Source of the DNA: Acidobacteriaceae bacterium
Lineage (GTDB): Bacteria; Acidobacteriota; Terriglobia; Terriglobales; Acidobacteriaceae
NCBI GenBank assembly: GCA_003131315.1
Contig: PKUV01000160.1
Span: forward strand, 59,804 to 123,803
DNA length: 64,000 nt
Reading direction: 5' to 3'
The translations under genes were made by a program, and so were the position numbers. Of the stretch, positions 11,795 through 54,060 are shown piece after piece (positions within the stretch are counted from its first letter, which is position 1; every line of letters starts with the position of its first letter). The notes below the pieces were generated by a model, which saw only the letters and a program-made list of their open reading frames with translations, was not told the origin of the DNA and ran no database searches.

Positions 11795-11827
11795 GGCTAC
11801 CTCCAAAGGTGCCCAGCCTCAATCAAG

Positions 11828-12547: not shown

Positions 12548-12658
12548 GGAATCTTTGTCGTGGCGATGACCACAAAATGTGGAATACTACCAATCTGCCG
12601 TCCGATGGCGGAACATTGCTTGGCGGCTGCGAGCCCGAATCCGATAAGGAGAATCAGA

Positions 12659-13333: not shown

Positions 13334-13413
13334 AGAAATCGCCTCTATTCGTCTCCCCCGCGCCCGCTCCCAACGAACCAGTGGAACTGTTCTGAAAGTC
13401 AGTGTCGAAATGA

Positions 13414-14979: not shown

Positions 14980-15076
14980 TGATTCTTTCCGCTTGCGCTT
15001 CGCCGTGAAGTTCGCATGTTTAATCATTATTTTTCCCGTAACTGAGGCCACCCTACGTATCAACAAAACGTTGAAC

Positions 15077-16603: not shown

Positions 16604-16796
16604 TCTCCCTCTCCTTGAAGAGCAGTGTCTGAGCTGCGTTGCAGGCTTGGCCGTGGGTGTACATGCGGGCTGACAATATCCAAAGACTGCCCTGGAGTCA
16701 ACTAATTTTAGAATCATGCCTCGCGTGTGTTAAAGTTTTGTTGATTTCTACTCTCAAAACGGGATATCGGAACGTGAGAGGAAATGTGCGCGGTTT

Positions 16797-21232: not shown

Positions 21233-21544
21233 TCATTTTCCCTAAGTTTCTCCGATGGCACGTGGGAACTGGCACCTCGCCCGTGCAGTCGAGTCAAGAT
21301 CACCCCACTGGACTACAATTTCCCCACCGTAGTCATTTCTCCACCCGTTTGCGACGCTCCCTCCAATACCCGCGAGCTTTCATGATCTCTGCCTGCGTGG
21401 GGGTAAAACACCCCCATGAATTACCCAAATCTGTTCGAGATGAATGCGCCCGCGCCCTCAAATCCCATGACACGGGAATTTTTTTCCCTCGCTGGATGTC
21501 CGCCACATCGCCCGAGACCGACGGCGGAGCAAAGCTAAGCCGGT

Positions 21545-22201
21545 TTACTTCAGCCGAGATTGGTGCATTTCACTACACTCGGGGACCCTTCCCAGTCGGT
21601 GCATGGTGTCAACAATCATTTCCACAACTTGGTCGTCACCTATTGTGGTGTTGACCATCAGGTGGTAAAGGACGCGAGTAGGCCAGTCCGATCGGAAATA
21701 ATATTTCACGAAGGCCATCCTTTCGCGATCAACGATGTCAATTAATTGCCTCGCTTCCGTTTCATTTCTTCCATCTGCAACGATGCGGCGGACTTTTTCC
21801 AAGTGTGGAGCATAAAGAAAGATATGAAACGTGTCGCTTCGGTGCCTTAAGAAGTATGGCGCACCGCGGCCAACTATGACGCTATTGCCCTCTTCGGCCA
21901 CTTTCAGCGCAAGCCTTTCCATCAGGGATACCATGCAGTCGGCATCGAATATCTGAGACTCGGCAAGTGAAGTGCCACGTTCATGACTCCCCCGAAAAAA
22001 CATTTTGGCGAGGCGGTACAATCGGCCATCCAGTTTTTCATCACGGCTGTCCACGACTGCACAGTCAACCTGAGCCATCTTCGCTATTTCTTGACTCAAC
22101 AGATGATCCCAGAGCTTCCAGCCCAACCGAGCAGCTAACTTCCTCGCAATAGCCCCGCCGCCGCAGCCGTATTCGCGTTCTATAGTGATGACCCTAAACA
22201 C
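21545..22201 (-). CDS. cytidylate-kinase-like family (P-loop) protein
   Basis: VFRVITIEREYGCGGGAIARKLAARLGW. AGGAGGGG lies 8 nt upstream of the GTG at 22201. The ORF track starts at 22231. Confidence 0.7.
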   Translation of the reverse strand: MFRVITIEREYGCGGGAIARKLAARLGWKLWDHLLSQEIAKMAQVDCAVVDSRDEKLDGRLYRLAKMFFRGSHERGTSLAESQIFDADCMVSLMERLALKVAEEGNSVIVGRGAPYFLRHRSDTFHIFLYAPHLEKVRRIVADGRNETEARQLIDIVDRERMAFVKYYFRSDWPTRVLYHLMVNTTIGDDQVVEMIVDTMHRLGRVPECSEMHQSRLK

Positions 22202-22232
22202 AGTTGTGGCCCCTCCTGAGAACTGCGTCACT

Positions 22233-22298
22233 GTTCGTACATCAAAATAGTGCAGAAGCAGAAAGGTTCGTACATCAAAATAGTGCAGAAGCAGAAAG
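22233..22298. repeat. perfect 33-bp tandem duplication (2 copies)
   Basis: GTTCGTACATCAAAATAGTGCAGAAGCAGAAAG occurs at 22233-22265 and again at 22266-22298, just upstream of the cytidylate-kinase-like gene. Confidence 0.95.
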
Positions 22299-22542
22299 GC
22301 CGCTCAGTTCAGTGGGTTTGAAAACCCTCTCCCAAGCCGCACCCGCATTGGGGCCGACCGCCCGACCTTGCCCTTTTTGGGTCACTGACGTCCTCGGCAG
22401 CTCCTAGCATCGTAAATTTGATTTTCTACCCGTTCATCCTGACTGATGGAAGCGAGTGTTGTGACTCTGTCAACCGCAAAGCGCCTTCCTTGTCGGGGGA
22501 ATGCAATTACATGGCTGTCGCAACGCGGTTAGTGTAGACCGT

Positions 22543-22572
22543 TTGTCAACTGTTTGACAACTACGACAGTTG
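22543..22572. promoter_or_regulatory. nested inverted repeats (candidate operator)
   Basis: TTGTCAA-CTGT-TTGACAA lies at 22543-22560. It overlaps CAACTGT (22547-22553) ... ACAGTTG (22566-22572). TGTTTG occurs three times nearby. Confidence 0.45.
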
Positions 22573-22766
22573 TTTGTATGCTGTGTCGGCGTCGAATCAG
22601 TGTAGGCAACGCTGCAGATTTCTACGCCAAACGACTGGATCGGCAAGAACCGCTCGCAACGCTTAAGTTGCGCTGCGGAGCGCCGAACGGGTATTTTGCG
22701 ATCGCGAAGCAAGATGGCGTTCGGCTGTGTGTCGCGCAGATCGCTCCTGTGGTTAGTTCGTTCTTT

Positions 22767-23588
22767 ATGAAGGGCTCTCCCCGCAAAACGGCAATCTCGT
22801 GGGTCGAATCGGATCGTATTCTGCTGCGAGGGTATCCGATCGATGCGCTCGTGGGAAATGTATCGTGGGCAGCAGCAGTTTACCTTGCGCTGGTCGGGGA
22901 AATACCGAATCCACGGATAGCGCGGCTTCTGGAGGGCATTCTGGTCTCAGTCATCGATCATGGCCCAACCCCCGCATCCACTCTCGCAGCGTGTACAGTG
23001 GCTAGCACCGGGTCGCCGTTAGCTAGTTCTGTGGCAGCCGGGCTCCTTGCGATAGCGAAGTCTCACGGCGGGGCAATTGAAGATTGCATGAGCGTGCTGG
23101 AGCGTTGTGTGGGCCTGAAACAAGATCCGGCTACGGCCGCTGCCAAAGTGGCACGCGAGTACCGGGAACAGGCGATTAGGGTTCCCGGGTTTGGTCATCG
23201 GCAACATTCGGCGGATCCTCGTAGTATCCGATTGCTCGACCTGGCTCGCGAGCTCGATTTGTTCGGAAACTATGTCGCCCATGCACAAGCCATGGAGGAT
23301 GTTCTGTCTAGAATTGCAGGCAAGCGATTACCGCTCAATGCAGACGGAGCGATAGCTGCTCTGCTCTGCGAGATTGCATTCCCGAAAACAGCCGCGAACG
23401 GAATCTTTATGATCGCCAGGATTCCGGGCTTGGTAGCGCACTGCCTTGAAGAGCAGGCGCGTAACCTTCCGCTGCGCGCCATCGATCCGGCTGCCTATGA
23501 ATATGATGGCCCCCCCGAGCGCAGTCTCGGTGGACAGAAGCACACACCAGAAAATGCGGTCGGAGAGTCCAAGGGAATGCAACCGTGA
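22767..23588 (+). CDS. citrate-synthase-family protein, short citryl-CoA-lyase-like form
   Basis: 273 aa. ILLRGYPIDALVG...VIDHGPTPAS...VPGFGHRQHSADPR...IARIPGLVAHCLEEQ. The start at MKGSPRK was chosen over the longer 22554 frame. Confidence 0.75.
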   Translation: MKGSPRKTAISWVESDRILLRGYPIDALVGNVSWAAAVYLALVGEIPNPRIARLLEGILVSVIDHGPTPASTLAACTVASTGSPLASSVAAGLLAIAKSHGGAIEDCMSVLERCVGLKQDPATAAAKVAREYREQAIRVPGFGHRQHSADPRSIRLLDLARELDLFGNYVAHAQAMEDVLSRIAGKRLPLNADGAIAALLCEIAFPKTAANGIFMIARIPGLVAHCLEEQARNLPLRAIDPAAYEYDGPPERSLGGQKHTPENAVGESKGMQP

Positions 23589-25036
23589 GTCGCTTCGACC
23601 TGGTCATAAAAAACGGCACTCTGGTGATCCCATACACCGGCCTGGTACAAGCAGATGTTGGCGTTAAAGATGGGCGCATTGCAGCGATAGGAGAAAGCAT
23701 AGCCGCAAATGAGGCGGAGACGCTCGTTCAAGCTCGCGGCAAGATGGTGTTTCCGGGCGCGGTGGATTCCCACTATCACGTCGGCATCTACCGCCCATTT
23801 TCAAAGGACGCGGAATCCGAATCTCGATCTTCTTTGGTTGGTGGCGTCACCACGCTTCTCAGCTATTTCAGAACCGGCCACCACTACCTCGATAAGTCCG
23901 GTCCATATCGCGAAATTTTTCCACAAGTGCTCGAACTCTCTGAAGGGCACTTCTATACGGACTATGGATTTCATCTGGCGATCATGACTGCGGAGCAGTT
24001 GCTCGAGGTCGATGATCTCATCGATACATTTGGCGTCGGCTCTTTTAAGTTTTACATGTTCTACAAAGGCTTGAATTTATCCGCGGACTCGACGCGCGGA
24101 AACGATTACACCATGGCCGACAATTACGATCTTGGCCACCTCTACTTGCTCATGGAGAGAGTTTCCGCCGCTTCCCGTAAGCACGCGGACAAGGGGAGGA
24201 TTGCGCTTAGTCTTCATTGCGAAAATCCTGAATTAATCCGCGTTTTTATTGAAAGAGTCAAACGGGAGGGTAGGCGAGGGCTGGAAGCCTACAGCGAAGC
24301 GCGCCCTCCGTTGAGTGAGCGCTTATCCATTGTGGAGGCGGTATTGCTAGCCGAGGCTACGAGATGCCCGATCAATCTCCTGCACCTGAGCAGCAGGCAG
24401 GCACTCGAAGCTGGCATCAGGTCGCGCCGGGAACATCCCGAGCTCGACATTGTCTTGGAAACTACACTTCATCACCTAACTCTGACCTGCGAAACCGCAG
24501 GCGGCATGATCGGTAAAGTTAATCCCCCGATTCGGGGGCAAGAGGATATCAATTATTTATGGGAAGGTATTGCCAACGGGGAAATCGATACTGTGGTCAG
24601 CGATCACGCGTGTTGCATGGAAGAAGATAAACGAGAAGACGATCTGTGGGGCTCGCTGCCCGGCTTTGGTGGATCGTCTCTCCTGTATCCGACGCTGATC
24701 TCCGAGGGATTCCATAAGCGCAATGTCCCTCTTACGCGCATCAGCGAAATCGCTTCGGCCAACCCGGCCCGCCATTTTGGATTATTTCCTCGCAAAGGAA
24801 CGTTGGCGGTGGGCGCCGACGCCGACTTTGCAGTCATTGATCTGCACCAGACTCAGGCGGTGAATGCTGATTTGCTGCAGTCAGCACAGGATTTCACGCC
24901 GTTTGCCGGAATAAAGATCAAAGGCTGGCCAACGGAAACCATATTGCGGGGTGAAATAATGATGAAGGATGCGAAAGTTACGGCGAAACCCCGCGGACGG
25001 TACCTTCGCCGCCCTATCGAACTGCACAAGGGCTAG
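23585..25036 (+). CDS. cyclic amidohydrolase (D-hydantoinase/dihydropyrimidinase/allantoinase-like)
   Basis: GAVDSHYHVG (HxH), SFKFYMFYKG (carbamylated-Lys context), LHCEN, LLHLSS and VSDHACC. The GTGA start/stop overlaps the previous gene. Confidence 0.85.
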   Translation: MSRFDLVIKNGTLVIPYTGLVQADVGVKDGRIAAIGESIAANEAETLVQARGKMVFPGAVDSHYHVGIYRPFSKDAESESRSSLVGGVTTLLSYFRTGHHYLDKSGPYREIFPQVLELSEGHFYTDYGFHLAIMTAEQLLEVDDLIDTFGVGSFKFYMFYKGLNLSADSTRGNDYTMADNYDLGHLYLLMERVSAASRKHADKGRIALSLHCENPELIRVFIERVKREGRRGLEAYSEARPPLSERLSIVEAVLLAEATRCPINLLHLSSRQALEAGIRSRREHPELDIVLETTLHHLTLTCETAGGMIGKVNPPIRGQEDINYLWEGIANGEIDTVVSDHACCMEEDKREDDLWGSLPGFGGSSLLYPTLISEGFHKRNVPLTRISEIASANPARHFGLFPRKGTLAVGADADFAVIDLHQTQAVNADLLQSAQDFTPFAGIKIKGWPTETILRGEIMMKDAKVTAKPRGRYLRRPIELHKG

Positions 25037-25087: not shown

Positions 25088-25163
25088 TTGACAAAGGGCG
25101 CCTCTCCCATGAAAATCAGCACCTAGTGACAAGTGTTTGAAACAGAAAACAGTGGAAAACAGT
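25088..25163 (+). promoter_or_regulatory. candidate promoter and operator of duplicated module A
   Basis: TTGACA (25088-25093), then 17 nt, then GAAAAT (25111-25116). Next come the palindrome TGTTTgAAACA (25134-25144) and GAAAACAGT twice (25145, 25155). Confidence 0.35.
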
Positions 25164-37038: not shown

Positions 37039-37056
37039 TGTTTATTTATGTAAACA
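37039..37056. promoter_or_regulatory. 18-bp palindrome TGTTTA-N6-TAAACA upstream of hyuA
   Basis: Read directly. It is followed by CAATTG and a TATTAT -10-like box (37064-37069). The same architecture occurs at 45335-45352. Confidence 0.45.
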
Positions 37057-41230: not shown

Positions 41231-42484
41231 ATGACAAAAACCGTGGACACGAATAGTCCTCGAAAACCACTTGAAGGTTTGCGTGTCCTCGAAATGGGAC
41301 AACTGCTTGCAGGCCCTTTTGCTTCGGTCTTGCTGGCGTGGTTTGGGGCAGAAGTAATCAAGATTGAACCGCCGGTTGAAGGTGATCCTTTGCGCACATG
41401 GCGCAGCCTGTACAAGGGCACCTCATTGTGGTGGTACATACTCGGACGAAACAAAAAGTCGGTGACAGTGAATCTCCGAACGCCCGAGGGGCAGTCGATC
41501 GTGCGCCGCCTGGTCGATAAGGTCGATGTGGTGCTCGAGAACTTCAAGCCCGGTACGATGGAGAAATGGGGCTTGGGATATGAGGAACTGAAGAAGATCA
41601 ACCCTCGGATCATCATGGCGCGGGTCTCCGGTTGGGGGCAAGATGGTCCATACAGCGCCAAACCTGGCTTTGCCTCAGTAGCGGAAGCAGTAGGTGGTTT
41701 GCGCTTTGTCACCGGATATCCGGATGGTCCACCCGTCCGTCCCAATCTTAGTCTCGGGGATACTCTCGCGGGCTTGCACGCTGCGCTCGGCATTCTCGTG
41801 GCGGTCTACCATAGAGACGTGGTAGGGAGCGGGGTGGGACAAGTGGTAGACGTTGCACTCTACGAATCTGTCTTCAATGTAATGGAGGGAATTGTCCCCG
41901 ACTTCGACAAATTAGGCATCGTCCGCCAGCGCGAGGGCAACCGACTGTCGGGGATAGTGCCCACTGGTACTTGGCGGTGCAGTGACGATAAGTACGTAGT
42001 TATCGGCGGCAATGGCGACAGCATCTTCAGGCGTCTCATGTTGGCGATCGGACGACCTGACCTGGCTGACGATCCTACGTTGGAACGCAACAGTGGACGG
42101 GTTCAACATGCTGAATTGATTGATGACGCGATCTCGGCCTGGACGCGTCAACACTCTCTGCAAGAGGTCATTAATACTCTAGAAAAGGCCGAAGTTCCAG
42201 TCGGGCCAATCTACTCGGTCTCGGAAATGATCGAGGATCCGCACTTCATCGCGCGCGGACTCTTTGAGACCCACACACTGCCCGACGGTACTACGGTGAA
42301 ACTTCCAGCCCTTGCTCCGAAACTTACTGAAACGCCCGGGAAAACACAGTGGATCGGGCCAGAACTCGGGGCGCACAACGCCGAAATCCTGGGCACGTTG
42401 TTGGGCATTTCAGGAGAAGAATTGCGCCGGTTGGTGCAGCAAGGCGTGGTCGGGTCGACGAGAAGTACGGCCGACGTCTCGTGA
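41231..42484 (+). CDS. family III CoA-transferase (CaiB/BaiF/Frc type)
   Basis: LEGLRVLEMGQLLAGPFASVLLAWFGAEVIKIEPP... 417 aa. Confidence 0.85.
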   Translation: MTKTVDTNSPRKPLEGLRVLEMGQLLAGPFASVLLAWFGAEVIKIEPPVEGDPLRTWRSLYKGTSLWWYILGRNKKSVTVNLRTPEGQSIVRRLVDKVDVVLENFKPGTMEKWGLGYEELKKINPRIIMARVSGWGQDGPYSAKPGFASVAEAVGGLRFVTGYPDGPPVRPNLSLGDTLAGLHAALGILVAVYHRDVVGSGVGQVVDVALYESVFNVMEGIVPDFDKLGIVRQREGNRLSGIVPTGTWRCSDDKYVVIGGNGDSIFRRLMLAIGRPDLADDPTLERNSGRVQHAELIDDAISAWTRQHSLQEVINTLEKAEVPVGPIYSVSEMIEDPHFIARGLFETHTLPDGTTVKLPALAPKLTETPGKTQWIGPELGAHNAEILGTLLGISGEELRRLVQQGVVGSTRSTADVS

Positions 42485-42489
42485 CACAG

Positions 42490-43446
42490 CTAAATAATAA
42501 CTCCCGCATGGATGCGTGCGCTCTCTAGCGATGAAAGATCGACTTCCATGTACGGGCGAGTCACTTTGGGAATTTTCTTCAAGCCTTCCGGAATGCTGTC
42601 CCAGATCCGGTTGCTGAAGATGATTTTGTCGTACTTGGTCGATTTTACGAACTTGCGAAGATCTTTAATCTTGGTAAACGGTAACGCGCTGATGTTGGTC
42701 CCGGGTTTGATTACGAGTTTGCGGTACAAATCGATCAAAAGGCTTAAAGAAGGATAGTCCTCGTCATCGAGGACAAGGACCAGTTTAGCGGTAGAGGGTA
42801 AGCGGCCGAGCTCTTTTACAGTTTGCTCGGCAAAGGTGAGGCCAAGCGGGATTACTTCGGCATGACGTCCGACGATGCGGCGCACCTGGTCAAAGCGAAT
42901 GTAGTTGGTGAGAACTTTACGAATTGTTCGCAGTTCCTGTTTGGGCAGAGCCGCCAACTCGTCTAGAGAATATCCAGGAACATTGACTTGCCAGATCACC
43001 GAAATATTATTGGCACGCTCGATTGCTTGAGACTTGGTTGCGTCCACAAATATGATGAAGGGAGATTGAGTCTCGTGTTCTCTCGCCCGCTGGTACAAAT
43101 AGCGTGCGAAGGCCGAGGGAGAAACGCTAACTTGTCGCAAACGGGTCAGAATGTACCGGGAAAGCGCTTCGCATTTCTCATGTATGCTATCGCGACCTCC
43201 GTAGCACAGTTGTTTCTGTACCAGAACACCTTTGCCGTGACGAAGATTCAAAATGCCCAAAGTTTGCAGTTCAAGGTATGCCTTGCGAACGATATTGCGG
43301 CTGACTCCGACTTCTTGTTCCACTTCGCGGATCGATGGGAGCGTATCACCGGGCCGCAATCGTCCGAGCAGGAGCGCGAGTTTGATTTTCTCTTGTATCT
43401 GCGCATGAGGAGGAAGCGGACTGTGCTTATCCACCGTGAAATCCAT
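42490..43446 (-). CDS. GntR-family transcriptional regulator with a ~250-aa C-terminal effector domain
   Basis: It has an N-terminal wHTH (GDTLPSIREVEQEVGVSRNIVRKAYLELQTLGIL) and is divergent from the lyase gene. Confidence 0.8.
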   Translation of the reverse strand: MDFTVDKHSPLPPHAQIQEKIKLALLLGRLRPGDTLPSIREVEQEVGVSRNIVRKAYLELQTLGILNLRHGKGVLVQKQLCYGGRDSIHEKCEALSRYILTRLRQVSVSPSAFARYLYQRAREHETQSPFIIFVDATKSQAIERANNISVIWQVNVPGYSLDELAALPKQELRTIRKVLTNYIRFDQVRRIVGRHAEVIPLGLTFAEQTVKELGRLPSTAKLVLVLDDEDYPSLSLLIDLYRKLVIKPGTNISALPFTKIKDLRKFVKSTKYDKIIFSNRIWDSIPEGLKKIPKVTRPYMEVDLSSLESARIHAGVII

Positions 43447-43610
43447 TCTCACACCATCCCATTCTGCAATCGGTTGCTTTAAAGTGCCCAACGCGGCTAA
43501 TCATATACGAATAGCCGCCTGTTTCGCTACGCAGTCAAAAGTTGTTTCAGAATCGGAGGCTCGGACGTCGGGACCGAGCTTGAGAATCAGTTGAGGTGGA
43601 AAGAGCAACA

Positions 43611-44549
43611 ATGTCGCTTACCCAAATCCATGTGGTAGAGGTCGGACCACGCGACGGATTTCAGATGGAAGCAACCTTTATACCGACTGACCTCAAGGTT
43701 GAAGTCATAGATTTACTGGGAAGAGCCGGTATAGAGAAAATTGAGGCCACGTCATTTGTGAGTCCGAAATTGATTCCTCAAATGCGGGATGCCGACGAAG
43801 TAATGTCCCGCATTCGACGCTTTCCCGGGATTCGACATACAGCGCTGGTGCCAAATGTCAAAGGCGCACAGCGTGCAATTGAAGCAGGCGCAGAGGCCGT
43901 GCGGGTGGTGATCTGCCTCAGCGAGAGCTACAACCGCCGCAATGTGGGCCTGGGGATATCTGAATCTCTGGAGAACTGTCGGCGCATCTGCGAAATGACC
44001 AAAAACCACGACATTGGCTGCGAAGCGATTCTTGCACTGGCCTTCGGCTGCCCACTGGAGGGCGTTATTTCCGAAGAAAGAGTCGTTGGGATCGCAAATC
44101 AACTGATAGGCATGGGCTTTGGCGAACTCTCAATCGCCGACTCAATTGGAGTCGCAAACCCTGCACACGTGAGGCGCCTGATAAGAAAGCTAGCGAAGGA
44201 AGCTGCTCTGGCCCATTACTCTTTGCATTTCCACAACACCCGTGGGTTGGGGCTGGCAAATGTCCTCGCGGGAATTGAGGAAGGCGTGGATACCTTTGAT
44301 TCTTCATGCGGGGGACTCGGAGGCTGTCCTGTGGTCCCGGGTGGTAGCGGCAACATACCCACGGAAGATCTGGTTAACATGCTGGAAGAAATGGGGATCA
44401 GCACAGGGGTTGAGCTGGCGCTGGTCATGACGGCGGCAAATAAGCTTCAGCAATTTCTTCGCCGTCCTTTAGCCAGCTATGTACTGGCGTCGGGAACGCG
44501 CAAGCAACTATTCGAAGGCGCTGCGGCGGGACCTCCGGCGCCGGCTTGA
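43611..44549 (+). CDS. HMG-CoA-lyase-like (HMGL/DRE-TIM) acyl-CoA lyase
   Basis: EVGPRDGFQME, SFVSPKLIPQM, HFHNTRGLGLAN and GLGGCPVVPGGSGNIPTEDL. Confidence 0.85.
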   Translation: MSLTQIHVVEVGPRDGFQMEATFIPTDLKVEVIDLLGRAGIEKIEATSFVSPKLIPQMRDADEVMSRIRRFPGIRHTALVPNVKGAQRAIEAGAEAVRVVICLSESYNRRNVGLGISESLENCRRICEMTKNHDIGCEAILALAFGCPLEGVISEERVVGIANQLIGMGFGELSIADSIGVANPAHVRRLIRKLAKEAALAHYSLHFHNTRGLGLANVLAGIEEGVDTFDSSCGGLGGCPVVPGGSGNIPTEDLVNMLEEMGISTGVELALVMTAANKLQQFLRRPLASYVLASGTRKQLFEGAAAGPPAPA

Positions 44550-45292: not shown

Positions 45293-45352
45293 TTGACATT
45301 TGATCTTGACAAGTGATAACAAGTTGAGCACAATTGTTTGGTTTGGCAAACA
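45293..45352 (+). promoter_or_regulatory. candidate promoter and operator of the second receptor operon
   Basis: TCTTGACA occurs twice (45291-45298 and 45304-45311). TTGACA (45306-45311) is followed by 17 nt, then CACAAT (45329-45334), then the palindrome TGTTTG-N6-CAAACA (45335-45352). Confidence 0.45.
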
Positions 45353-45371: not shown

Positions 45372-48300
45372 ATGAAGACGATTCGGCAAACTCCGCGGTA
45401 CCAGGTGGTTCGGGCATTTCTGCCGAATGTAGCGCACGCCCCAGCCTCGTTGGCAATTGTGGTATGCCTCTTAATGATGACTGGTTATAGTAGCGCTCAG
45501 GCCACGGCTTCGGTGGAAGGGCTGGTCACCGACTCCACTGGCGCGGTACTGCCACATGCGGAAGTTAATGCCACCAGCCTTTCGATGGGTTTGGCGCGAA
45601 CTGGGGCTGCAGATGCGGATGGCTATTACCACATCGCGAGCTTGCCAGTCGGCACTTATGACATAACGGCCACATTGGCGGGGTTCAAGAAAACACTGTT
45701 GAATGGGGTAACCCTCACGGTAGGTCAGGCCGCGCGCATCAATATAACGATGCAGGTCGGTGATGTTCAGCAAGCGATCGAAGTGCAAGGCATTGCTCCC
45801 TTGGTGGATACCACTACCACGGAGGTGGGTGGAGTTGTGGAGAACAAGCAGATTATGTCCATGCCGCTCAATGGCCGGCACTTCCTGCAGTTGGGTCTGT
45901 TGATTCCCGGAGTGAGTGAACCACAGACCGGAAGCACGCAGGCCCAATGGGGGACCGCAGGCGGTAACATTGGCTTTTCCGTAGCTGGCCAACGCGACTC
46001 CTATAACAACTTCACGTTGGACGGTGTCAACGTTATGGACACCAATTACAATACGTTGACCGTGAGCCCATCAGTAGATGCGGTCCAAGAATTCAGGATC
46101 ATAGCTGATGGCTATTCTGCGAAGTACGGCATCGTGCCCGGCGCACAAGTTGACATTGTTACTCGCTCGGGCACAAATGGCTTCCATGGTTCCGCATACG
46201 AGTACTTCCGAAATTCAGTGCTGGACGCTAAGAACTATTTTGATGATCCCACCCGTTCCACTCCACCGTACAAGCAAAACCAGTTCGGCGGGACACTGGG
46301 TGGCCCCATCAAGAAAGATAGAGCTTTCTTTTTCCTTTCTTTAGAGGGACTGCGCATACGACAGTCTTTGACGCAAACAACTACGGTGCCTACGTTGGCG
46401 ATGCACAATGGGGACTTGTCGGGGATCAATCCTGGCACGGGGCAGCCCTTTCCGCAGATTACAGACGTCAACGGTGTCCCCTATCCCGACAATCAGGTTC
46501 CTTTGACTGCGATCAGCCCACTCGCGGCGGGGATTCTCGCGATGACGCCCCTCCCCAATATTCCTAACGCGGCACCCGGTCAGTCGAACTATCTCGCGGT
46601 GGCATCCCGTTACGATAACAGTACGGTTTATCAAGGCCGGATTGACTACCAACTCACACCAAAGAACCTAGCGTCTGTTCGCTATACACAGCAACAGGAC
46701 GATTCAAGTTCACCCTTCGTTCACCGCTTCTCTCCGGTGTTGCCTGGCTCAAACGGATTCGGCGATGTTGGGAACTCGATGGGTCATAACGTGGGCATCT
46801 CGGTAACCAGTGTTGTGACTCCTTCGCTGGTTAATACGTTTCGATTTGGATACAACGGTCTCCATGCGATTGTTGAATCACAGAACATAGACTCTGACTT
46901 CATTCAAAAGCTCGGATACACGCGATACGGGAATACACAAAATTACGGAATCCCGTACATCAGCATACCGGGACTTGGGGGCCTAGGAGATAGTGACACG
47001 CTGCAGCCTAACATCCGGCGCAATAATGGTTTCGAGCTACGTAACGACGTGAGCTGGACTCGGGGTAGATTCACCCATGATTTTGGGGCAGATTACTGGT
47101 TATATCATCTCGCAGGTGTCACCGACACGTTTTCGAATGGCCAATTCCAGTTTGGATCAGATACAGGCTTTGGACAGAACGCCACCGGCTCGGGCTTCTC
47201 AGATTTTCTGCTTGATCGTCCGCGCGTCAGCTTAATTCAGCTAGGAGTCGGTTATGGTTACTTTAGATACAAGTACTTTGGCACGTACTACGCTGGCCAA
47301 TTCCGGGCTACTCCACATTTAACAGTGAATTTTGGACTGCGTTGGGAGTTCTCTACGAGTCCGACTCCCATCAACGGGACCGTGATGTCGGTGCTGGACA
47401 TGGCTGCCGGGGCGATTGTGCTCGGTTCTCAGTCGGGACAGATGCCCTCATTATCCGATCCCCTCACGCAGTACTTTATTAACAATTTCGGTACGACTTT
47501 CAAGACTAACCGCCAGCTGGGCCTACCTGCTTCTATTAATCCGACCCACTATCTCAATCTCGCGCCGCGGTTTGGGTTTACGTGGGATGCTCTGGGAGAC
47601 TCCCGTCTCGTGGTCCGCAGTTCCGCGGGTCTGTTCAACAGCTTTCAGGAACGTGGATACAGCGTAGAGTCCGGGGTTCTGGGGCCTCCGTTTGCTCCCA
47701 CGATTGCGACTTTTCAAGATTCGCTCTACTTTCCCACTACACCAAATACCTATGAGACCACCTATGCTTTCGGTGGGCCTTCCGACCGGACTTCGGATAA
47801 TGGAGGACCGTCGACCGCGGGGGTTCCGCCGGGAGTTCGTCCCGGCTATGTCGAAGAGTGGACTCTAAGCCTGCAGTCGCAGGTGAGAAAGAATACAGTC
47901 GCAGAACTTTCCTACGCTGGAAACCATGGCGTACACTTGAACGGTTTCTATCTCGCCGATCAGAATTTCCCCAATACACCGGAGGCGCGAGGCGGTTTCC
48001 CTCCCAACACTCGGTTCGGCGAATCTTTTCAGGAGCACAGCGCGGGGATGTCCTGGTATCATGGGTTATCGGGGCGAATTCAGCAGCGGGTGCAGCAGGG
48101 GTTGACGTTCACTGTGGGCTATACGTGGGCAAGATCTGAAGATACCGTATCCACCTTTACGGGAGGACCTACTGACTCTCCTGTTCCTCAAAACTCGTAC
48201 GATCTGGCTGGAAATAAGGGGTTATCTAATTTTGACCGTCGCAATCGCTTTATTGTGAACTACCTTTGGGACTTGCCATTTGGGCACGGCAAGAAATTCC

Positions 48301-48800
48301 TGAACCAAACGGGAGTGGCTGACGCGATTCTAGGGGGCTGGCAGTGGGGCGGGCTGGCCACTATTGAATCTGGAACTCCATTCACAGTGCAATTGACAGG
48401 CAATGTAAGCGGGATTGCGAGTTCCAGCGCAGATCGCCCGAATTGCGTGGCGGATCCAAACGTGGGCGCTCCTCAGACGGTGGAAGAGTGGTTTAATGTA
48501 GATGCTTTTGCGCCGAATACTAAGATTGTTCCACCGACTGGCTCCCCTTACAAACTCCTGGGAAACTGCGGGCGAAACATTGTGCAAGGCCCTCCCGTTC
48601 GTAATTACGACATGACTCTCGCTAAGGTGTTCAGTCTCACAGAGCGCGCACACCTGGAGTTCCGGACAGACTTCTTCGACGTCTTGAACCATCCGAACTT
48701 TAATACACCGAATCGTTATTTCGGGACTGCGACGTTTGGACAAATCACTTCGGCGCAGCTCCCACGATTAATCCAATTTGGATTGCGTCTTTCATTTTAA
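45372..48800 (+). CDS. TonB-dependent receptor with a carboxypeptidase-regulatory-like domain (second copy)
   Basis: AGGAGGGG lies before the ATG at 45372. It has a signal peptide, GLVTDSTGAVLPHAEVNATS...DGYYHIASLPVGTYDI, and a C-terminal ...FGLRLSF. Confidence 0.9.
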   Translation: MKTIRQTPRYQVVRAFLPNVAHAPASLAIVVCLLMMTGYSSAQATASVEGLVTDSTGAVLPHAEVNATSLSMGLARTGAADADGYYHIASLPVGTYDITATLAGFKKTLLNGVTLTVGQAARINITMQVGDVQQAIEVQGIAPLVDTTTTEVGGVVENKQIMSMPLNGRHFLQLGLLIPGVSEPQTGSTQAQWGTAGGNIGFSVAGQRDSYNNFTLDGVNVMDTNYNTLTVSPSVDAVQEFRIIADGYSAKYGIVPGAQVDIVTRSGTNGFHGSAYEYFRNSVLDAKNYFDDPTRSTPPYKQNQFGGTLGGPIKKDRAFFFLSLEGLRIRQSLTQTTTVPTLAMHNGDLSGINPGTGQPFPQITDVNGVPYPDNQVPLTAISPLAAGILAMTPLPNIPNAAPGQSNYLAVASRYDNSTVYQGRIDYQLTPKNLASVRYTQQQDDSSSPFVHRFSPVLPGSNGFGDVGNSMGHNVGISVTSVVTPSLVNTFRFGYNGLHAIVESQNIDSDFIQKLGYTRYGNTQNYGIPYISIPGLGGLGDSDTLQPNIRRNNGFELRNDVSWTRGRFTHDFGADYWLYHLAGVTDTFSNGQFQFGSDTGFGQNATGSGFSDFLLDRPRVSLIQLGVGYGYFRYKYFGTYYAGQFRATPHLTVNFGLRWEFSTSPTPINGTVMSVLDMAAGAIVLGSQSGQMPSLSDPLTQYFINNFGTTFKTNRQLGLPASINPTHYLNLAPRFGFTWDALGDSRLVVRSSAGLFNSFQERGYSVESGVLGPPFAPTIATFQDSLYFPTTPNTYETTYAFGGPSDRTSDNGGPSTAGVPPGVRPGYVEEWTLSLQSQVRKNTVAELSYAGNHGVHLNGFYLADQNFPNTPEARGGFPPNTRFGESFQEHSAGMSWYHGLSGRIQQRVQQGLTFTVGYTWARSEDTVSTFTGGPTDSPVPQNSYDLAGNKGLSNFDRRNRFIVNYLWDLPFGHGKKFLNQTGVADAILGGWQWGGLATIESGTPFTVQLTGNVSGIASSSADRPNCVADPNVGAPQTVEEWFNVDAFAPNTKIVPPTGSPYKLLGNCGRNIVQGPPVRNYDMTLAKVFSLTERAHLEFRTDFFDVLNHPNFNTPNRYFGTATFGQITSAQLPRLIQFGLRLSF

Positions 48801-48804
48801 CAAA

Positions 48805-50118
48805 ATGGCATACCGGCCAACTCGAAGGCAGCTGCTAGGCGCCTTATCCGCGGGTGGACTGATGTGGGGGACGGTCAGAAACATTGTGGGAATGCCCATT
48901 TCGGCCGCACCGCTAACGTCGGAGCCATCCGCGCCGCCGAGTGGGAGCTCTGCTTTTCCGACTCCACCTATCTCCGTTGCCGCATTTACTAAACGAATTG
49001 CCAGAATTCGCGAGCAGATGCGAGCAGATAAGTTAGATTGCTTGCTTGTTTCCTCGGTCCTGAACCATGCGGTTCGATATTTGGGTTTTTTTGACCCGGA
49101 ACTGCAGGGCCGCGGGTCCGGTTCGTCCCAGCTGGTCTCCGTTCTCCTGCCGATCGAGGGCGATCCGGTACTGTTTCTGCAGACTTTTACGGCCGCGGGG
49201 TATATGCGTCCGCGAGCCGAGGCATCGAGCCATATAAAGGATATAAGGCTGGTGGGGGGTGATAACCAGCAGGTGCTTCAGTTAGTAGTGGATCAGATAC
49301 ACTCCTGGAAGTTGGACGGCGGCCGGCTTGGCTTGGCCGGTGGAGAGATTGACTGGGCTGAGCGGTTATTCTTTGCGCAGTTTTTGCCGCGGGTCAACCT
49401 GGTTGACGCTAACGCGATGCTGAGTCTCTTGCGCATAGTCAAGGATGCGGAAGAGATTGAATTGATGAGACATTCCGCCGCCATCGGCGATACGGCCATG
49501 GCTGAAGTTGAAAGAAGTATCGCGCCGGGTGTGACGGATTTCGAACTCTATGCGCGAGGTCAAGCCAGTATGCTGTCGGCGGGAGGCGAAGAGGATACTT
49601 TTGTCCTAATGGGCATCGGACCGAATCAAAATACTATGCTCATGGAACTGCTGAACGGACGGAGGCTCAGCAGAGGCAATGTGGTAGTTTACGAAACATT
49701 GCCATTTTACCGTTTGTATAACACGGAACTGGCGGTCACATTCTCATTAGGACCTGCCTCTGCAATGCAAAAGCGAGCGGCAGATGCTTGTCAGGCGGCC
49801 TACGAGGCCGGCGTGGCCGAAGCCAGGCCAGGAGTTCCGGCCTCCAAGGTCGTGGATGCTTCGTTAGCGGTATTCCAAGCCCACGGCTTTGATTCTTTCA
49901 CGCATACACCAGGTCACTTCATAGGTCTGGATAACTACGAAGGGCCATCTTTGCGCTCACGCGATATCGTTCTTGAGACCGGTATGATCTTCAGCTTTCA
50001 CCCGAACGTCGTGATTCCAGAGCAGGTTAAGGAAGAAATCTGCGGGATTCTGCTGGTGACGGACAAAGGAGTGGAGAATCTTTCGAAGTATCCACCCCGG
50101 GGTATGCGGGTCGTGTAG
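48805..50118 (+). CDS. M24-family (creatinase/prolidase fold) protein with a Tat signal, paralog A
   Basis: It has [19 protein letters not shown], a creatinase/prolidase-type N-domain and a pita-bread C-domain. By eye the metal positions read E,E,H,(Y)E,H,L rather than D,D,H,E,E. Confidence 0.75.
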   Translation: MAYRPTRRQLLGALSAGGLMWGTVRNIVGMPISAAPLTSEPSAPPSGSSAFPTPPISVAAFTKRIARIREQMRADKLDCLLVSSVLNHAVRYLGFFDPELQGRGSGSSQLVSVLLPIEGDPVLFLQTFTAAGYMRPRAEASSHIKDIRLVGGDNQQVLQLVVDQIHSWKLDGGRLGLAGGEIDWAERLFFAQFLPRVNLVDANAMLSLLRIVKDAEEIELMRHSAAIGDTAMAEVERSIAPGVTDFELYARGQASMLSAGGEEDTFVLMGIGPNQNTMLMELLNGRRLSRGNVVVYETLPFYRLYNTELAVTFSLGPASAMQKRAADACQAAYEAGVAEARPGVPASKVVDASLAVFQAHGFDSFTHTPGHFIGLDNYEGPSLRSRDIVLETGMIFSFHPNVVIPEQVKEEICGILLVTDKGVENLSKYPPRGMRVV

Positions 50119-50134
50119 TTAAGGGGAGATTGGG

Positions 50135-51493
50135 GTGCATGACTGGGACCTGAATCGTCGCGAGCTCCTGAAGCTTGCTGCTCTAGCAGCCGGCGGGGCA
50201 GTTTCGCTTCATCCCGATGCCTTGGGGCAAAACCAAGATCCTTCCGCTAAAGGCTCTGGAGCACAAAGCGAGGAAGGTCGTGGCAAAGCTAAGAGTGCTG
50301 TTTCCCTGCATCCGTCAGTCGAAATGGCGACCTTGTATTCGAAGGAATATGGACGCCGGCGCATCCAGAAAATTCAGGCCGCTGTAAGACAGGCCAATCT
50401 CGACGCTCTGATCGTAACCAATCGCGGACTAGATTACATCGGGTACGTGAGCAATTTCCATCCTTATCCCCTGGAACCAGGGATGGCTCTCGTGTTAGCT
50501 GACGGGCCATCGACTCTGTTCGTGAACACATACAGCAGTGCCCATACCCGCGCCCTCATTCCGATTGTTTGGACGGACGAATTGGTGGATGTTCCGCGTG
50601 ATTCGGTGTCGGAAGGTAGCAATCAGAATCTGGTAGACGCATGTATTCAGAAATTGCAGGACCGGAAACTGCAGCGAGGCAGGATCGGACTGGCGGGCGA
50701 TGAGATTGATTGGCTTCTTCCGTTTTACTTTCGAAATCGCCTGCCGGACGCGAAGGCAGAGGATGCGAATCGCACTCTGACGCAAGTCATTGTAGTAAAA
50801 GATGAAGTCGAATTGGCGCTCATCCGGTTTGCGCAGGGACTTATCGACGAAGTCGCCTATCCGGTTTTTCGAGAGGTTCTGCGTCCCGGGGCGATGGATC
50901 AAGCGGTATACGCACGGGTGCTGGCCAGCATGCTGGAGCGGGGCGCGAACCCGGCCACGGTCCTGCTCTTCGATGCTGGCCCCGCGGGTTCGGGCACATG
51001 GGCCAGCGGAACGCGTGGACGCCGGCTGGAAAAGGGCGACATCATCCTCTCTGAACCTACCCCGAATATCGCCGGGTATCAATCCGAAAAAATGTACACA
51101 TTTGCGCTTGGCCGCGAAATACCAGAGTCGCAAAAACACGGATCAGAAGTCATCTACGAAGCCTACCAATTGCTGATGAGCGAATTGAAAGTGGGTCAGG
51201 AATTGACGCCGATCGTCCAGAGAGTCGAGGCGTTTATTCGGAGCCATGGATACGATGGCTCAACGGTCCCGGTCGGGCATTGGATCGGGACTCAGAACCA
51301 TGAAGGGCCGCGTTTCACCGTAGAAGGAACGCGCGGCTGGGTGTTGCAGAAAGATATGGTCATGAGTTGGCACCCCAATATCGTGGTACCGGGCAAGGTG
51401 CGTACAACGTGCTCAACTTGTGTCCTGCTCACTGAGAAGGGGGCGGAGGATCTGTCCACGATTAAGATGGAGCCGATCTATTATCTGGAATAG
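50135..51493 (+). CDS. M24-family protein with a Tat signal, paralog B
   Basis: VHDWDLNRRELLKLAALAAGGA, GDIILSE, GYQSE, VGHWIG, NHEGP, SWHPN and VLLTEKG. Confidence 0.75.
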   Translation: MHDWDLNRRELLKLAALAAGGAVSLHPDALGQNQDPSAKGSGAQSEEGRGKAKSAVSLHPSVEMATLYSKEYGRRRIQKIQAAVRQANLDALIVTNRGLDYIGYVSNFHPYPLEPGMALVLADGPSTLFVNTYSSAHTRALIPIVWTDELVDVPRDSVSEGSNQNLVDACIQKLQDRKLQRGRIGLAGDEIDWLLPFYFRNRLPDAKAEDANRTLTQVIVVKDEVELALIRFAQGLIDEVAYPVFREVLRPGAMDQAVYARVLASMLERGANPATVLLFDAGPAGSGTWASGTRGRRLEKGDIILSEPTPNIAGYQSEKMYTFALGREIPESQKHGSEVIYEAYQLLMSELKVGQELTPIVQRVEAFIRSHGYDGSTVPVGHWIGTQNHEGPRFTVEGTRGWVLQKDMVMSWHPNIVVPGKVRTTCSTCVLLTEKGAEDLSTIKMEPIYYLE

Positions 51494-51501
51494 CGGGCTG
51501 G

Positions 51502-52488
51502 ATGCCTCTCACCATGATTCGAAAAATGCTACTGCAGTTGTTGTTTCTCTCGGGCCTGTGCGTAGTTAGCCAGAGCCAGCAATCCCAGCCGATCATTGAT
51601 GTGCATGTGCACGCCTATCCCGCGGATTGGGTGAGGAATGTGCTGGGACCGCTCGCGACGGAAAGCGATAAGCTGCCTGATCCTCCGAATCCCATCACCG
51701 GCACGCGTTCCGGGGCCATCACCAACGAGCAACTGCGTAACGCGATGTTGGCGGCAATGAGGCGTTACAACATAGTTAAAGCCGTTGCGAGCGGTCCACT
51801 CGATATCGTCTCACAGTGGAAGACTGCGGATCCTGATCGGATCATCGGCTCCCCTTTATTTCCCATTCCTAAGATGGCGCCCTATCCGACGATTGAGGAG
51901 CTTCGCCAGGGCTACACATCCGGGCGCCTCGGCGCATTAGGCGAGGTTACGGCGATCTACGACGGGCTATCCCCCAGCGACCCCAAGATGGACGGGTACT
52001 ACACTTTGGCTGAGGAGATGGACATCCCTGTCGGAATCCATACGGGGATTGGAATCCCGGAGGCTTCGTATAGCTGCTGCCCAGGTTTTCGAATCGGCTT
52101 AGCTAACCCGCTGAATCTGGAAGAACTGCTGGTCCGGCATCCGCGATTACGGGTTTACGTCATGCACGCCGGGTATCCCTATCTGGACGCAACGCTGGCA
52201 CTGATGAACGCCTACCCGAAGATCTACGCCGACCTGGCAGCCATTGATTGGCTTCTTCCCCGGGATGAGTTTCAGCAATATTGTTCGAGGCTCATCCAAG
52301 CGGGCATGGGGAAGCGCTTGATGTTTGGGACGGACGAAATCGTCTGGCCCGATGCCTTCGGAGTTGCAATCGATAACATTAACTCCATGAGCGCTCTCAC
52401 TCCCGAGGAAAAGGCCGACATTTTTTATAACAATGCAGCACGTTTCTTCCATCTGGACCGCGCCAAACCCCAGTCGTCCAGGAGGTAA
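51502..52488 (+). CDS. exported Amidohydro_2 protein
   Basis: It has a signal peptide and the motifs IIDVHVHAYP (HxH present), VMHAGYPYLD and FGTDE. Confidence 0.8.
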   Translation: MPLTMIRKMLLQLLFLSGLCVVSQSQQSQPIIDVHVHAYPADWVRNVLGPLATESDKLPDPPNPITGTRSGAITNEQLRNAMLAAMRRYNIVKAVASGPLDIVSQWKTADPDRIIGSPLFPIPKMAPYPTIEELRQGYTSGRLGALGEVTAIYDGLSPSDPKMDGYYTLAEEMDIPVGIHTGIGIPEASYSCCPGFRIGLANPLNLEELLVRHPRLRVYVMHAGYPYLDATLALMNAYPKIYADLAAIDWLLPRDEFQQYCSRLIQAGMGKRLMFGTDEIVWPDAFGVAIDNINSMSALTPEEKADIFYNNAARFFHLDRAKPQSSRR

Positions 52489-52492
52489 TCAA

Positions 52493-52939
52493 TTGCCCGC
52501 ACGCCGGATAGCCACAAAGAAACGCAGATCATCTACAATTGCTCTGCAAGATCGCGCCTCAGCCTTTTTTGGAGTCCTCGCGAAGGATGCAGATGGACGC
52601 CGGCTGTTGGCGGAGCAAAACCATCGTATCGAATTTGATCTCACCGATGATGATCCGTTCTGCGTGCAAATAAAGAACGGGCGCGTTGGAACGAGGGCGA
52701 GCGTCACCGAACCGCAGCGTTACGATGTCAACGATCTCATACATTTTCAGCTCTCCGAGGTGACATTGGCGCGACTGTTCGACGGTAAGATCCGATTCAC
52801 CGACGCGCTGATTCCGATTCGGCAGGACGGCAGTGATGCCATGCTTCTGTTGGAATGCACCTTGTTCAAATGGAGTGTCCTGAGCTGGGTAGGCCGTCTT
52901 TTTCGGGGCGCTCAGCTCCGAATTGGTGGGCAGGCATGA
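52493..52939 (+). CDS. SCP2/sterol-carrier-like small protein
   Basis: IEFDLTDDDPFCVQIKNGRV...DVNDLIHFQLSEVTLARLFDGKIRFTDALI resembles the SCP2 fold pattern. The TTG at 52493 has AGGAGG 8 nt upstream. There is an ATGA overlap with the next gene. Confidence 0.5.
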   Translation: MPARRIATKKRRSSTIALQDRASAFFGVLAKDADGRRLLAEQNHRIEFDLTDDDPFCVQIKNGRVGTRASVTEPQRYDVNDLIHFQLSEVTLARLFDGKIRFTDALIPIRQDGSDAMLLLECTLFKWSVLSWVGRLFRGAQLRIGGQA

Positions 52940-54060
52940 GTACATTTCAAGCAGGGCTAACCAGGAGAAACCTGTTGCTGCTCGGTGCGCTTGCGTATCC
53001 CGGTAAGGTTCTCATGAACTGGAATTCTGATCGTAAAGCGGCCTCGTCCATGAATATCGATATCTATACGCATTTCTTCCCCCCCGCGTACGCAAGAGAA
53101 ATTACCCGGCGCGCAACACGCACCCACCCGGACGTCCCCAATATCGAAATGCTGATGCGCTTGTTTCCTAATTTGTGCGAGTTCGAAACACGTCTAGCGC
53201 ATATGGATCGATATGAAACGTCGCTCCAGGTATTGACTCCTCTTCCGATCCCGGCAGACCTGTTCGTCGGTGATTCGTCGGCCGCCGCGGCTTTGGTTCG
53301 GGTTGCCAATGATGCGATGGCCGAGGCGATCGCGAAGCGGCAGGATCGTTTTGCCGGTGTGGCATTGTTGTGTTTCTTGAACCCGGAGGAAGCTGCGAAC
53401 GAGTTGGAACGGGCAGTAAAGCACCTTGGACTGAAAGGGGCGATGCTCTTTACCAACATTGCCGGCCGACCCGTCGACATGCCTCAACTCTTTCCAGTCT
53501 ACGAGAGAGCGCAGGGCCTGGACGTGCCCCTCTGGATCCATCCGATTTCGTGGAATTATTATGATTGGGTCCGTGACTACTTAATTTGGCAGGTCTTTGG
53601 CTGGCCGATGGACACGACTTTGGCAATGGCTCGTCTGGTTTATGGCGGAGTACTGGAGAAATTCCCCAAGTTGAAATTCATTACTCACCATGCAGGTGGC
53701 ACCACGCCGTATCTCATTGGGCGGGTGATCGACACCTATGATCAAAATGAGGAATTGACGCGGCTCTCGGAATCTGGTCCGAGTGCCCCTCGGCCGGCAG
53801 CAAAGAAGCCTATTGATTACTATCGAATGTTTTATGGCGACACCGCTCTTTCGGGAATTGCTACCGCGATGGGCTGCGCTTATGAGATGTTCGGATCGGA
53901 GCACATGGTGTTTGGCTCTGATTACCCGTTTGGACCAGATAGCGGACAGCGCTTTATCCATTCGAACCTGGCGGCGATTGACACCCTGAAGCTGCCGGGC
54001 CGCGATCAAAGAAGGATCCTGGTCGAAAATGCTCGGTCCCTGCTCAGAATGAAGGCTTGA
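52936..54060 (+). CDS. Amidohydro_2 protein with a Tat-like signal
   Basis: MSTFQAGLTRRNLLLLGAL, NIDIYTHFFP, FITHHAGG and VFGSDYPF. Confidence 0.8.
   Translation: MSTFQAGLTRRNLLLLGALAYPGKVLMNWNSDRKAASSMNIDIYTHFFPPAYAREITRRATRTHPDVPNIEMLMRLFPNLCEFETRLAHMDRYETSLQVLTPLPIPADLFVGDSSAAAALVRVANDAMAEAIAKRQDRFAGVALLCFLNPEEAANELERAVKHLGLKGAMLFTNIAGRPVDMPQLFPVYERAQGLDVPLWIHPISWNYYDWVRDYLIWQVFGWPMDTTLAMARLVYGGVLEKFPKLKFITHHAGGTTPYLIGRVIDTYDQNEELTRLSESGPSAPRPAAKKPIDYYRMFYGDTALSGIATAMGCAYEMFGSEHMVFGSDYPFGPDSGQRFIHSNLAAIDTLKLPGRDQRRILVENARSLLRMKA

Follow-up and report, generated by a model that had tools for sequence, protein, structure and literature searches.

The window analysed here is a stretch of 64,000 nucleotides (nt) from the genome of an Acidobacteriaceae bacterium (assembly GCA_003131315.1; contig PKUV01000160.1, positions 59,804–123,803). 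It contains an operon at 45372–54060 (window coordinates throughout) in which the gene of a TonB-dependent-receptor-type outer-membrane protein precedes genes for two proteins of the M24 peptidase fold and for enzymes of the Amidohydro_2 family. Six genes lie on the + strand in the order receptor (45372–48800), M24-A (48805–50118), M24-B (50135–51493), Amidohydro_2-A (51502–52488), a small open reading frame (ORF; 52493–52939) and Amidohydro_2-B (52936–54060), with successive gaps of 4, 16, 8 and 4 nt and a 4-nt ATGA overlap at the last junction. The ATG of M24-A falls 4 nt past the receptor stop codon; M24-B has a GTG start behind its 16-nt gap, with GGGGAG upstream, and the small ORF has a TTG start with AGGAGG 8 nt upstream.

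This order, strand and tight spacing had been described in an earlier interpretation made without database searches (hereafter the sequence-only reading), and profile searches confirm the domain assignments: CarboxypepD_reg and OMP_b-brl_4 in the receptor, Creatinase_N with Peptidase_M24 twice, and Amidohydro_2 twice. The receptor combines a secretory (Sec) signal, a CarboxypepD_reg domain (PF13620, 70.7 bits), a weak plug (21.1 bits, under its cut-off of 23.9) and a large OMP_b-brl_4 barrel (PF25183, 707 bits), and its orthologues in the related loci L001–L008 are 59–83% identical.

Active sites of the M24 pair and of a wider clade

M24-A (437 amino acids (aa)) and M24-B (452 aa) are approximately 30–33% identical to each other, depending on the alignment, and both join a Creatinase_N domain to the pita-bread Peptidase_M24 domain. 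Matches to PF00557 and PF01321 score 111.8 and 28.8 bits in M24-A and 71.4 and 34.4 bits in M24-B (cut-offs 23 and 22). An AlphaFold2 (AF2) model, made for M24-A only, reproduces the two-domain structure with a predicted local distance difference test score (pLDDT) of 87.6, and Foldseek places it at template modelling (TM) scores of 0.7–0.86 from DoeA, prolidases and creatinase, neighbours that are near-equal in score.

We mapped the metal-ligand positions by HMMER alignment to the Pyrococcus furiosus prolidase 1pv9, whose ligands we take to be D209, D220, H284, E313 and E327, and to 5cdl of Deinococcus radiodurans; MAFFT alignment with canonical relatives agrees. The canonical D,D,H,E,E set is absent from both paralogs. 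In M24-A the five positions are occupied by E297 (window position 49693), E308 (49726), H371 (49915), H399 (49999) and C413 (50041), and in M24-B by E307 (51053), E318 (51086), H382 (51278), H413 (51371) and S427 (51413), all read on the + strand. The sequence-only reading had proposed E,E,H,H,L for both; its first four ligands and the loss of Glu from the fifth position hold in these alignments, and its Leu is replaced by Cys or Ser, the register having been off by 2–3 residues. Beyond the metal ligands, M24-A has Met and M24-B has Ala where creatinase and MetAP have their catalytic His (the MetAP H79-type His), and the H178-type ‘HE’ His is Tyr in M24-A and is kept in M24-B.

The A and B lineages and a third exported lineage (E-E-H-H-G) share only 25–33% identity, and yet all keep the Glu, Glu, His, His core without variation. 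In MetAP and prolidase, the residues that bridge the two metals are the second Asp and the Glu at position five. Because the bridging fifth Glu is lost and a His-His-Glu triad with one more Glu is left, the composition of the site would fit a mononuclear centre better than a dinuclear one. This bears on the earlier description of the site as creatinase-like or mono-metal: a non-canonical and strictly conserved site is what the alignments contain, a single metal would be favoured by its composition, and the likeness to creatinase is not supported, with no curated model reached and Met or Ala in place of the catalytic His.

In M24-B, S427 is flanked by Cys426 and Cys429. Cysteines surround the fifth ligand position in most B-type proteins (C-S-x-C, with TC-S-TC and CC-S-AC as examples; residues 426–429 of M24-B, at 51410–51421, and relatives in L013, L014 and L015), where they might form a disulfide or serve as extra ligands in a periplasmic enzyme.

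We counted ligand patterns in approximately 200 M24 relatives of at least 300 residues, pooled from two protein searches. D,D,H,E,E was found in 110 and variants of E-[E/Q]-H-H-[C/S/G/H] in approximately 65; for remote sequences, some of which the mass MAFFT alignment mis-assigns, these numbers are approximations, and the E-E-H-H core was checked by HMMER. One candidate pattern, E-Q-H-N-G in P0105, was rejected when alignment to structures in the Protein Data Bank (PDB) exposed such a misalignment. In a FastTree tree of 65 representatives, the variant proteins form one clade separate from the canonical ones, and the exported lineages A (E-E-H-H-C/S), B (E-E-H-H-S) and the third (E-E-H-H-G) sit among proteins with E-Q-H-H-G or E-E-H-H-G that are apparently cytoplasmic. 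The E-[E/Q]-H-H-x site thus appears, from these alignments, to be the mark of a wider and mostly cytoplasmic M24 clade and not a peculiarity of the cassette.

For the E-[E/Q]-H-H-x clade there is neither a solved structure nor a curated family. The best scores against NCBIfam equivalog models (PepQ, YpdF, PepP and MetAP) are 79.8 bits for M24-A against a cut-off of 630 and 45.7 bits for M24-B against 393. The non-peptidase M24 models are missed as well (TIGR02993, 73.3 against 613; NF038259, 67.9 against 575; DddP, 19 against 600), and none of ten variant M24 proteins tested reaches any NCBIfam cut-off. In searches of solved structures with M24-A, M24-B and the relative P0079, every match was a named prolidase, aminopeptidase, creatinase, DoeA or MetAP, and among the alignments listed the targets carry canonical ligands. 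Our literature searches found no Tat-exported or ligand-rewired M24 enzyme of this kind; the ‘M24’ of PMC4899797 is Met-24 and not an M24 peptidase, and PMC13188858 contains nothing on the EutD active site.

Export signals and the compartment of each enzyme

Both M24 proteins begin with a putative twin-arginine translocation (Tat) signal, MAYRPTRRQLLG in M24-A and MHDWDLNRRELLKLAAL in M24-B. The latter (LNRRELLKLAALAAGG) has the motif LNRRELLK with an h-region of 14 aa, and it reaches 17.8 bits with TIGR01409, above the cut-off of 16.7; M24-A, at 14.5 bits, lies slightly below that cut-off. Across eight loci with 57–93% identity, the RR motif and an uncharged stretch of 14–28 residues are found in all eight M24-A orthologues and in seven of the eight M24-B orthologues. 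The motif is also present in every one of a second tier of M24 relatives (45–50% identical), three of which have a lipobox-like Cys. Residues 1–47 of M24-A are unstructured in the AF2 model, and the fold begins at approximately residue 50. The genome encodes the Tat machinery, with tatC (238 bits for TatC) and tatA present and several TatA/B/E matches.

Database starts for M24-A (366 aa, P0003) and M24-B (336 aa, P0225) skip an upstream stretch whose translation is conserved and remove the first helix of Creatinase_N. Because this conserved domain is cut, the internal starts are worse than the upstream ones, which answers the objection, foreseen in the sequence-only reading, that better internal starts might exist. 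Public gene calls for M24-A, M24-B and many of their orthologues (several of 417–428 aa) begin downstream of the RR motif and are labelled Xaa-Pro aminopeptidase.

The N-termini of the Amidohydro_2 enzymes are of two kinds. The signal of Amidohydro_2-A is of the classical, hydrophobic Sec type and is kept in seven of the eight loci. Amidohydro_2-B has an N-terminal RR motif (LTRRNLLLLGALAYPGK) within an extension, LTRRxLLxLxALAYPxK, that is conserved in the five closest loci; its export signal seems doubtful, because the uncharged stretch is only 11–12 residues long and neither Pfam TAT_signal nor TIGR01409 matches it. Where at least four export signals had been claimed, three are therefore counted as firm, those of M24-B, Amidohydro_2-A and, through its conservation in spite of a sub-threshold profile score, M24-A; that of Amidohydro_2-B is in doubt.

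The compartment also varies among loci. In L001 (63% identity; 11329–15109), M24-A alone keeps its Tat signal, and M24-B, Amidohydro_2-A and Amidohydro_2-B have neither a signal nor an in-frame upstream alternative start. In L002 and L019, the Amidohydro_2-B orthologue is signal-less and lies within a cytoplasmic module. The earlier picture of the Amidohydro_2 enzymes as a fixed exported set is not borne out by these loci, and the Amidohydro_2 steps may act on small products that could be dealt with in the periplasm or in the cytoplasm. The signal-less M24-B beside a signal-bearing M24-A in L001 would fit hitch-hiker export of a heterodimer through Tat; the loss of signals there could reflect such export or a partial move of the pathway to the cytoplasm.

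Export of M24 proteins is not confined to this cassette. An M24 protein with the canonical D,D,H,E,E ligands is encoded elsewhere in this genome, outside the window (G000:C104:47542-48648; L021), and its N-terminus is a good twin-arginine one, MVSRRRFLQTGSLAAG / MVSRRRFLQTGSLAAGVSVALPTLARA; the genome also has a cytoplasmic S-E-H-H-Q variant (C153, L023). The occurrence of both in one genome indicates that Tat export and rewiring of the site are separable. Other exported relatives include canonical proteins of Tat/lipoprotein type (Kofleriaceae in NCBI) and 483-aa proteins with a Sec signal, one of them assigned to Cyclobacteriaceae in NCBI. The premise that M24 export is exceptional does not survive these Sec-, Tat- and lipoprotein-type examples.

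Conservation and surroundings of the cassette

All orthologous loci examined contain the cassette. The receptor, M24-A, M24-B, Amidohydro_2-A and the small ORF occur in one order in L001–L006, L008 and L019, usually with Amidohydro_2-B next. Upstream neighbours in this window tier are genes for GntR, an HMG-CoA-lyase-like protein and an isochorismatase-type amidase, joined by CaiB and HyuA/HyuB where the flank extends; an alternative neighbour is an Amidohydro_1/RidA/Amidohydro_2/MFS module. Relatives of M24-B that are 44–52% identical form the second tier, in related but distinct modules. L013 has a receptor, a Tat-Amidohydro_2, a Tat-M24 with E-E-H-H-G, a Tat-M24 with E-E-H-H-S and CstA. L014 has a receptor, an Amidohydro_2 with an RR motif upstream of its called start, the same two kinds of Tat-M24 (E-E-H-H-G and E-E-H-H-S), an E1 dehydrogenase and an extra B copy. 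A receptor and a B-type M24 make up L015, and the same pair is followed by CstA in L017. L018 holds a B-type M24, an Amidohydro_2 and an M24 without a receptor.

Of the 13 loci examined, 12 have an adjacent receptor gene. A common receptor lineage for the two tiers was considered and rejected at 28–31% between-tier identity, and the second-tier Amidohydro_2 enzymes are only remotely related to Amidohydro_2-A. Because its receptors and Amidohydro_2 enzymes are remote from those of the window, the second tier suggests a recurring theme of receptor, exported Amidohydro_2 and exported variant M24 pair and not one strictly orthologous operon. The comparison of the locus to a polysaccharide utilization locus (PUL), made in the sequence-only reading, remains reasonable as regards a conserved, receptor-led uptake and trimming unit; a strict PUL it is not, as the SusD-like partner is missing.

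CstA-family genes stand directly after a B-type M24 gene at L013:10345-12162 and L017:9758-11821. These neighbours hint at a peptide or small carboxylate product.

The receptor–M24 module is rare. A search of 5.8 billion proteins gave approximately 34 close cluster representatives of M24-A, and in a set of 1.84 billion clusters at 50% identity only 11 representatives reached E ≤ 1e-30. Two of the 201 genomes sampled from the order have M24-A, and nine other genomes of its own genus were without it. A B-type protein (E ≤ 1e-60) was found solely in its own genome among 401 genomes sampled from the phylum, at most four candidates per genome being scored. Named relatives are Acidobacteriaceae or Terriglobia metagenome-assembled genomes.

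Amidohydro_2-A (328 aa; PF04909, 104 bits) has the full HxH...H...H...D set of metal-site residues (H35, H37, H180, H222 and D278), and its sole match among solved structures, a weak one, is 2qpx (E 5e-4). Amidohydro_2-B (374 aa; PF04909, 134 bits) belongs to the ACMSD/LigW/LigJ-type subfamily, grouping with ACMSD, LigW, gamma-resorcylate decarboxylase and LigJ, and has YxH for HxH (Y44, H46, H202, H252 and D329). Its Y44-x-H46 lies at 53065–53073, and YxH also occurs in an uncharacterised Lactobacillus protein (PDB 3ij6). The idea that the exported Amidohydro_2 enzymes are recent copies of the island’s cytoplasmic Amidohydro_2 genes was rejected at only 20–26% identity.

The small ORF (148 aa, no signal peptide) is a real gene, because 46 of its columns are invariant across eight loci. 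It matches no Pfam or NCBIfam model, and its AF2 model (pLDDT 81.7) is matched by Foldseek at probability 1.0 and a query-normalized TM score (TMq) of 0.5–0.57 to SCP2, UbiJ-SCP2 and alkylsulfatase SCP2 domains; the protein may be a cytoplasmic carrier of a hydrophobic ligand. In the processing battery of five genes envisaged earlier, the small member is an SCP2-fold protein that lacks a signal.

Upstream of the receptor gene, a promoter-like site (TTGACA-17-CACAAT, a consensus match only) is followed by a perfect palindrome, TGTTTGGTTTGGCAAACA, the two together spanning 45306–45352 on the + strand. The palindrome, of 18 bp, lies at 45335–45352 between the -10-like box and the ribosome-binding site of the receptor gene, and no exact copy was found in 19 other loci. 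Near-matches with one or two mismatches lie just upstream of hyuA (37039–37056) and of the Amidohydro_1 gene at 25137 (25134–25151). Their number in the window is not above chance, with six observed, 2.5 expected and six of 100 shuffles reaching six.

Elsewhere in the window, a first receptor gene (8312–11806, minus strand) is followed by genes for S10-like serine carboxypeptidases at 6686–8281 and 5074–6633, and it also adjoins two more S10-like genes (13414–16717) and an M61-like gene (16797–18539). Together, the receptor, four S10-like genes and M61-like gene (5074–18539) are a second receptor-plus-peptidase set in the window. The stretch at 19670–25036 holds a CitF-like CoA-transferase gene and a citrate-synthase-C-terminal (citryl-CoA-lyase-like) gene, and with the CaiB and HMG-CoA-lyase-like pair at 41231–44549 the island has two CoA-transferase/lyase pairs for hydroxy-acid cleavage.

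Proposed function, rival explanations and known systems

We tentatively propose, at a likelihood a little short of even, that the operon is a receptor-coupled periplasmic catabolic module in which the M24 pair cleaves a C–N bond of an imported nitrogen compound other than a standard Xaa-Pro peptide. The imported compound would be organic, nitrogen-containing and either scarce or bulky, and the receptor would take it through the outer membrane. Both M24 proteins would be folded and loaded with metal in the cytoplasm and exported by Tat, probably as an A/B heterodimer, with a re-tooled site that is most likely mononuclear (two His and one or two Glu). The pair would hydrolyse an amide or amidine C–N bond in a compound that is probably no standard Xaa-Pro peptide, and the exported Amidohydro_2 enzyme or enzymes would process the product by hydrolysis, decarboxylation or hydration. 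Small products may then enter the cytoplasm through the island’s MFS carriers (CstA in distant versions), where the isochorismatase-type amidase, HMG-CoA-lyase-like protein, CoA-transferase, HyuA/HyuB, Amidohydro_1 and RidA could complete the breakdown. A heterodimer is suggested by the genes of M24-A and M24-B, which are always adjacent, and by the pattern in L001, which it would fit; the fold of creatinase, prolidase and DddP is dimeric (PMC4108388). Sequence and fold favour no one substrate, because the structural scores to DoeA, prolidase and creatinase are near-equal and no curated model is reached.

Several observations weigh against this catabolic module. The clade tree comes from a FastTree run read without support values. 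Receptors are 55–63% identical within the second tier, and at 28–31% the two tiers are no closer to each other than to the unrelated first receptor of the window. A B-type M24 stands alone beside the receptor in L015 and L017, so pairing is not obligatory. The signal-less Amidohydro_2 orthologues in L001 and L002/L019 and the weak signal of Amidohydro_2-B mean that part of the set may be cytoplasmic. The CstA-family transporter gene after an M24 gene in L013 and L017, and the four S10-like genes and one M61-like peptidase gene around the window’s first receptor, point to plain peptides. They favour what we regard as the main rival, possible if rather doubtful: ordinary peptide scavenging, in which the receptor imports oligopeptides, the M24 proteins are periplasmic exopeptidases of aminopeptidase-P or prolidase type with variant ligands, and uptake proceeds through CstA or MFS carriers. 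Most characterised members of the fold are indeed Xaa-Pro or Met peptidases, the best PDB sequence matches of the pair are prolidases, and the same genome has its canonical Tat-signal M24. On the other hand, peptidases of this type would have to work with all metal ligands but one His changed and the proton-shuttle His lost, and the PepQ, PepP and YpdF scores are far under their cut-offs (80 bits against 630; 79 against 393). Furthermore, the cassette always comes with Amidohydro_2 and SCP2 genes, and the window tier is also tied to genes for an amidase, a CoA-transferase, a lyase and HyuAB, none of them peptide-catabolic.

The loss of the canonical catalytic apparatus can also be read as loss of catalysis, one or both M24 proteins being pseudo-enzymes that bind or escort receptor cargo in the periplasm. 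Non-peptidase homologues do exist in the M24 fold, Ebp1 and Spt16 among them. We consider this improbable: the replacement Glu, Glu, His and His are classic metal ligands, and they are invariant across lineages of 25–33% identity where drift would otherwise be expected. We give equally little credence to the view that the RR N-termini are no export signals, the enzyme set is wholly cytoplasmic and the receptor is a mere neighbour. It draws on the sub-threshold TIGR01409 score of M24-A, the short hydrophobic stretch of Amidohydro_2-B without a match to a Tat profile, the three of four enzymes that are signal-less in L001 and the database calls that often start past the RR motif. It must be set against an RR motif and uncharged stretch kept at 57–93% identity and in the 45–50% identical second tier, there in some cases with a lipobox-like Cys; an M24-B score above the curated Tat cut-off; an M24-A N-terminus of 47 residues predicted to be disordered and outside the fold; downstream starts that truncate Creatinase_N; and the textbook Sec signal of Amidohydro_2-A.

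A bolder version of the catabolic module, which we think unlikely, would make the pair an obligate Tat-exported A/B heterodimer whose mononuclear His2-Glu(2) centre constitutes a new catalytic class of the pita-bread fold. It would cleave a non-peptide C–N bond of a receptor-imported soil compound, for example of amidine or guanidino type or an amide-linked organic acid of siderophore type, and the cytoplasmic E-[E/Q]-H-H-G clade would share its chemistry.

Among known systems, prolidases and other Xaa-Pro peptidases (MEROPS M24B; 1pv9, 5cdl and 4r60 from Xanthomonas campestris) are closest in sequence. They share Creatinase_N and the pita-bread fold with the window M24 proteins, are their best sequence matches (E 1e-26 to 1e-21; TM 0.7–0.86), and have the third ligand His and the active-site scaffold in common with them. 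Unlike prolidases, which have D,D,H,E,E, the window proteins have E,E,H,H,C/S, have lost the proton-shuttle His and score far under the equivalog cut-offs; they also carry Tat signals, form a conserved heterologous pair and are linked to a receptor. DoeA/EutD (6twk) and creatinase (1chm, 1kp0) are top or near-top structural neighbours of M24-A (TM 0.75/0.82 for DoeA and 0.73–0.75 for creatinase), and they use the same fold to hydrolyse non-peptide C–N bonds (amidine, guanidino). Both are cytoplasmic, however, and the catalytic His position of creatinase is Met or Ala in the pair. M24-A and M24-B are members of the M24 fold that lack the canonical ligands and fall below the creatinase, DoeA and DddP models, and, as far as sequence comparison can tell, they probably represent periplasmic hydrolases of an uncharacterised kind rather than ordinary peptidases. 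Truncated database calls named ‘Xaa-Pro aminopeptidase’ conceal the signal for export as well as the changed site.

The operon follows the logic of PULs of the SusC/D type, in which a TonB-type importer of the outer membrane is co-transcribed with exported enzymes that work on the cargo ahead of its transport through the inner membrane. It differs from them in its receptor, a CarboxypepD_reg/OMP_b-brl_4 protein of acidobacterial type, and in its M24 and Amidohydro_2 enzymes; Pfam and NCBIfam profile scans of the five genes downstream of the receptor found no SusD-like lipoprotein, glycoside hydrolase or other carbohydrate-active enzyme domain. The exported, receptor-linked M24 proteins offer a testable example of how soil Acidobacteria may put their very large families of TonB-type receptors to use for non-carbohydrate nutrients.

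Tat substrates known to be carried as hitch-hikers or to be loaded with metal before export include HybOC and DmsAB of Escherichia coli and MncA of Synechocystis. In hitch-hiker export, one partner bears the signal and takes the other, which has none, across the membrane with it; the M24 pair of L001 would fit this pattern. Unlike these systems, the M24 pair involves no redox cofactor, and in most loci both partners bear signals. The pita-bread fold itself is a textbook case of one scaffold with several chemistries, serving MetAP, prolidase, creatinase, DoeA and DddP, and a conserved Glu-Glu-His-His clade in which the dinuclear Asp/Glu centre is replaced would add another chemistry to it.

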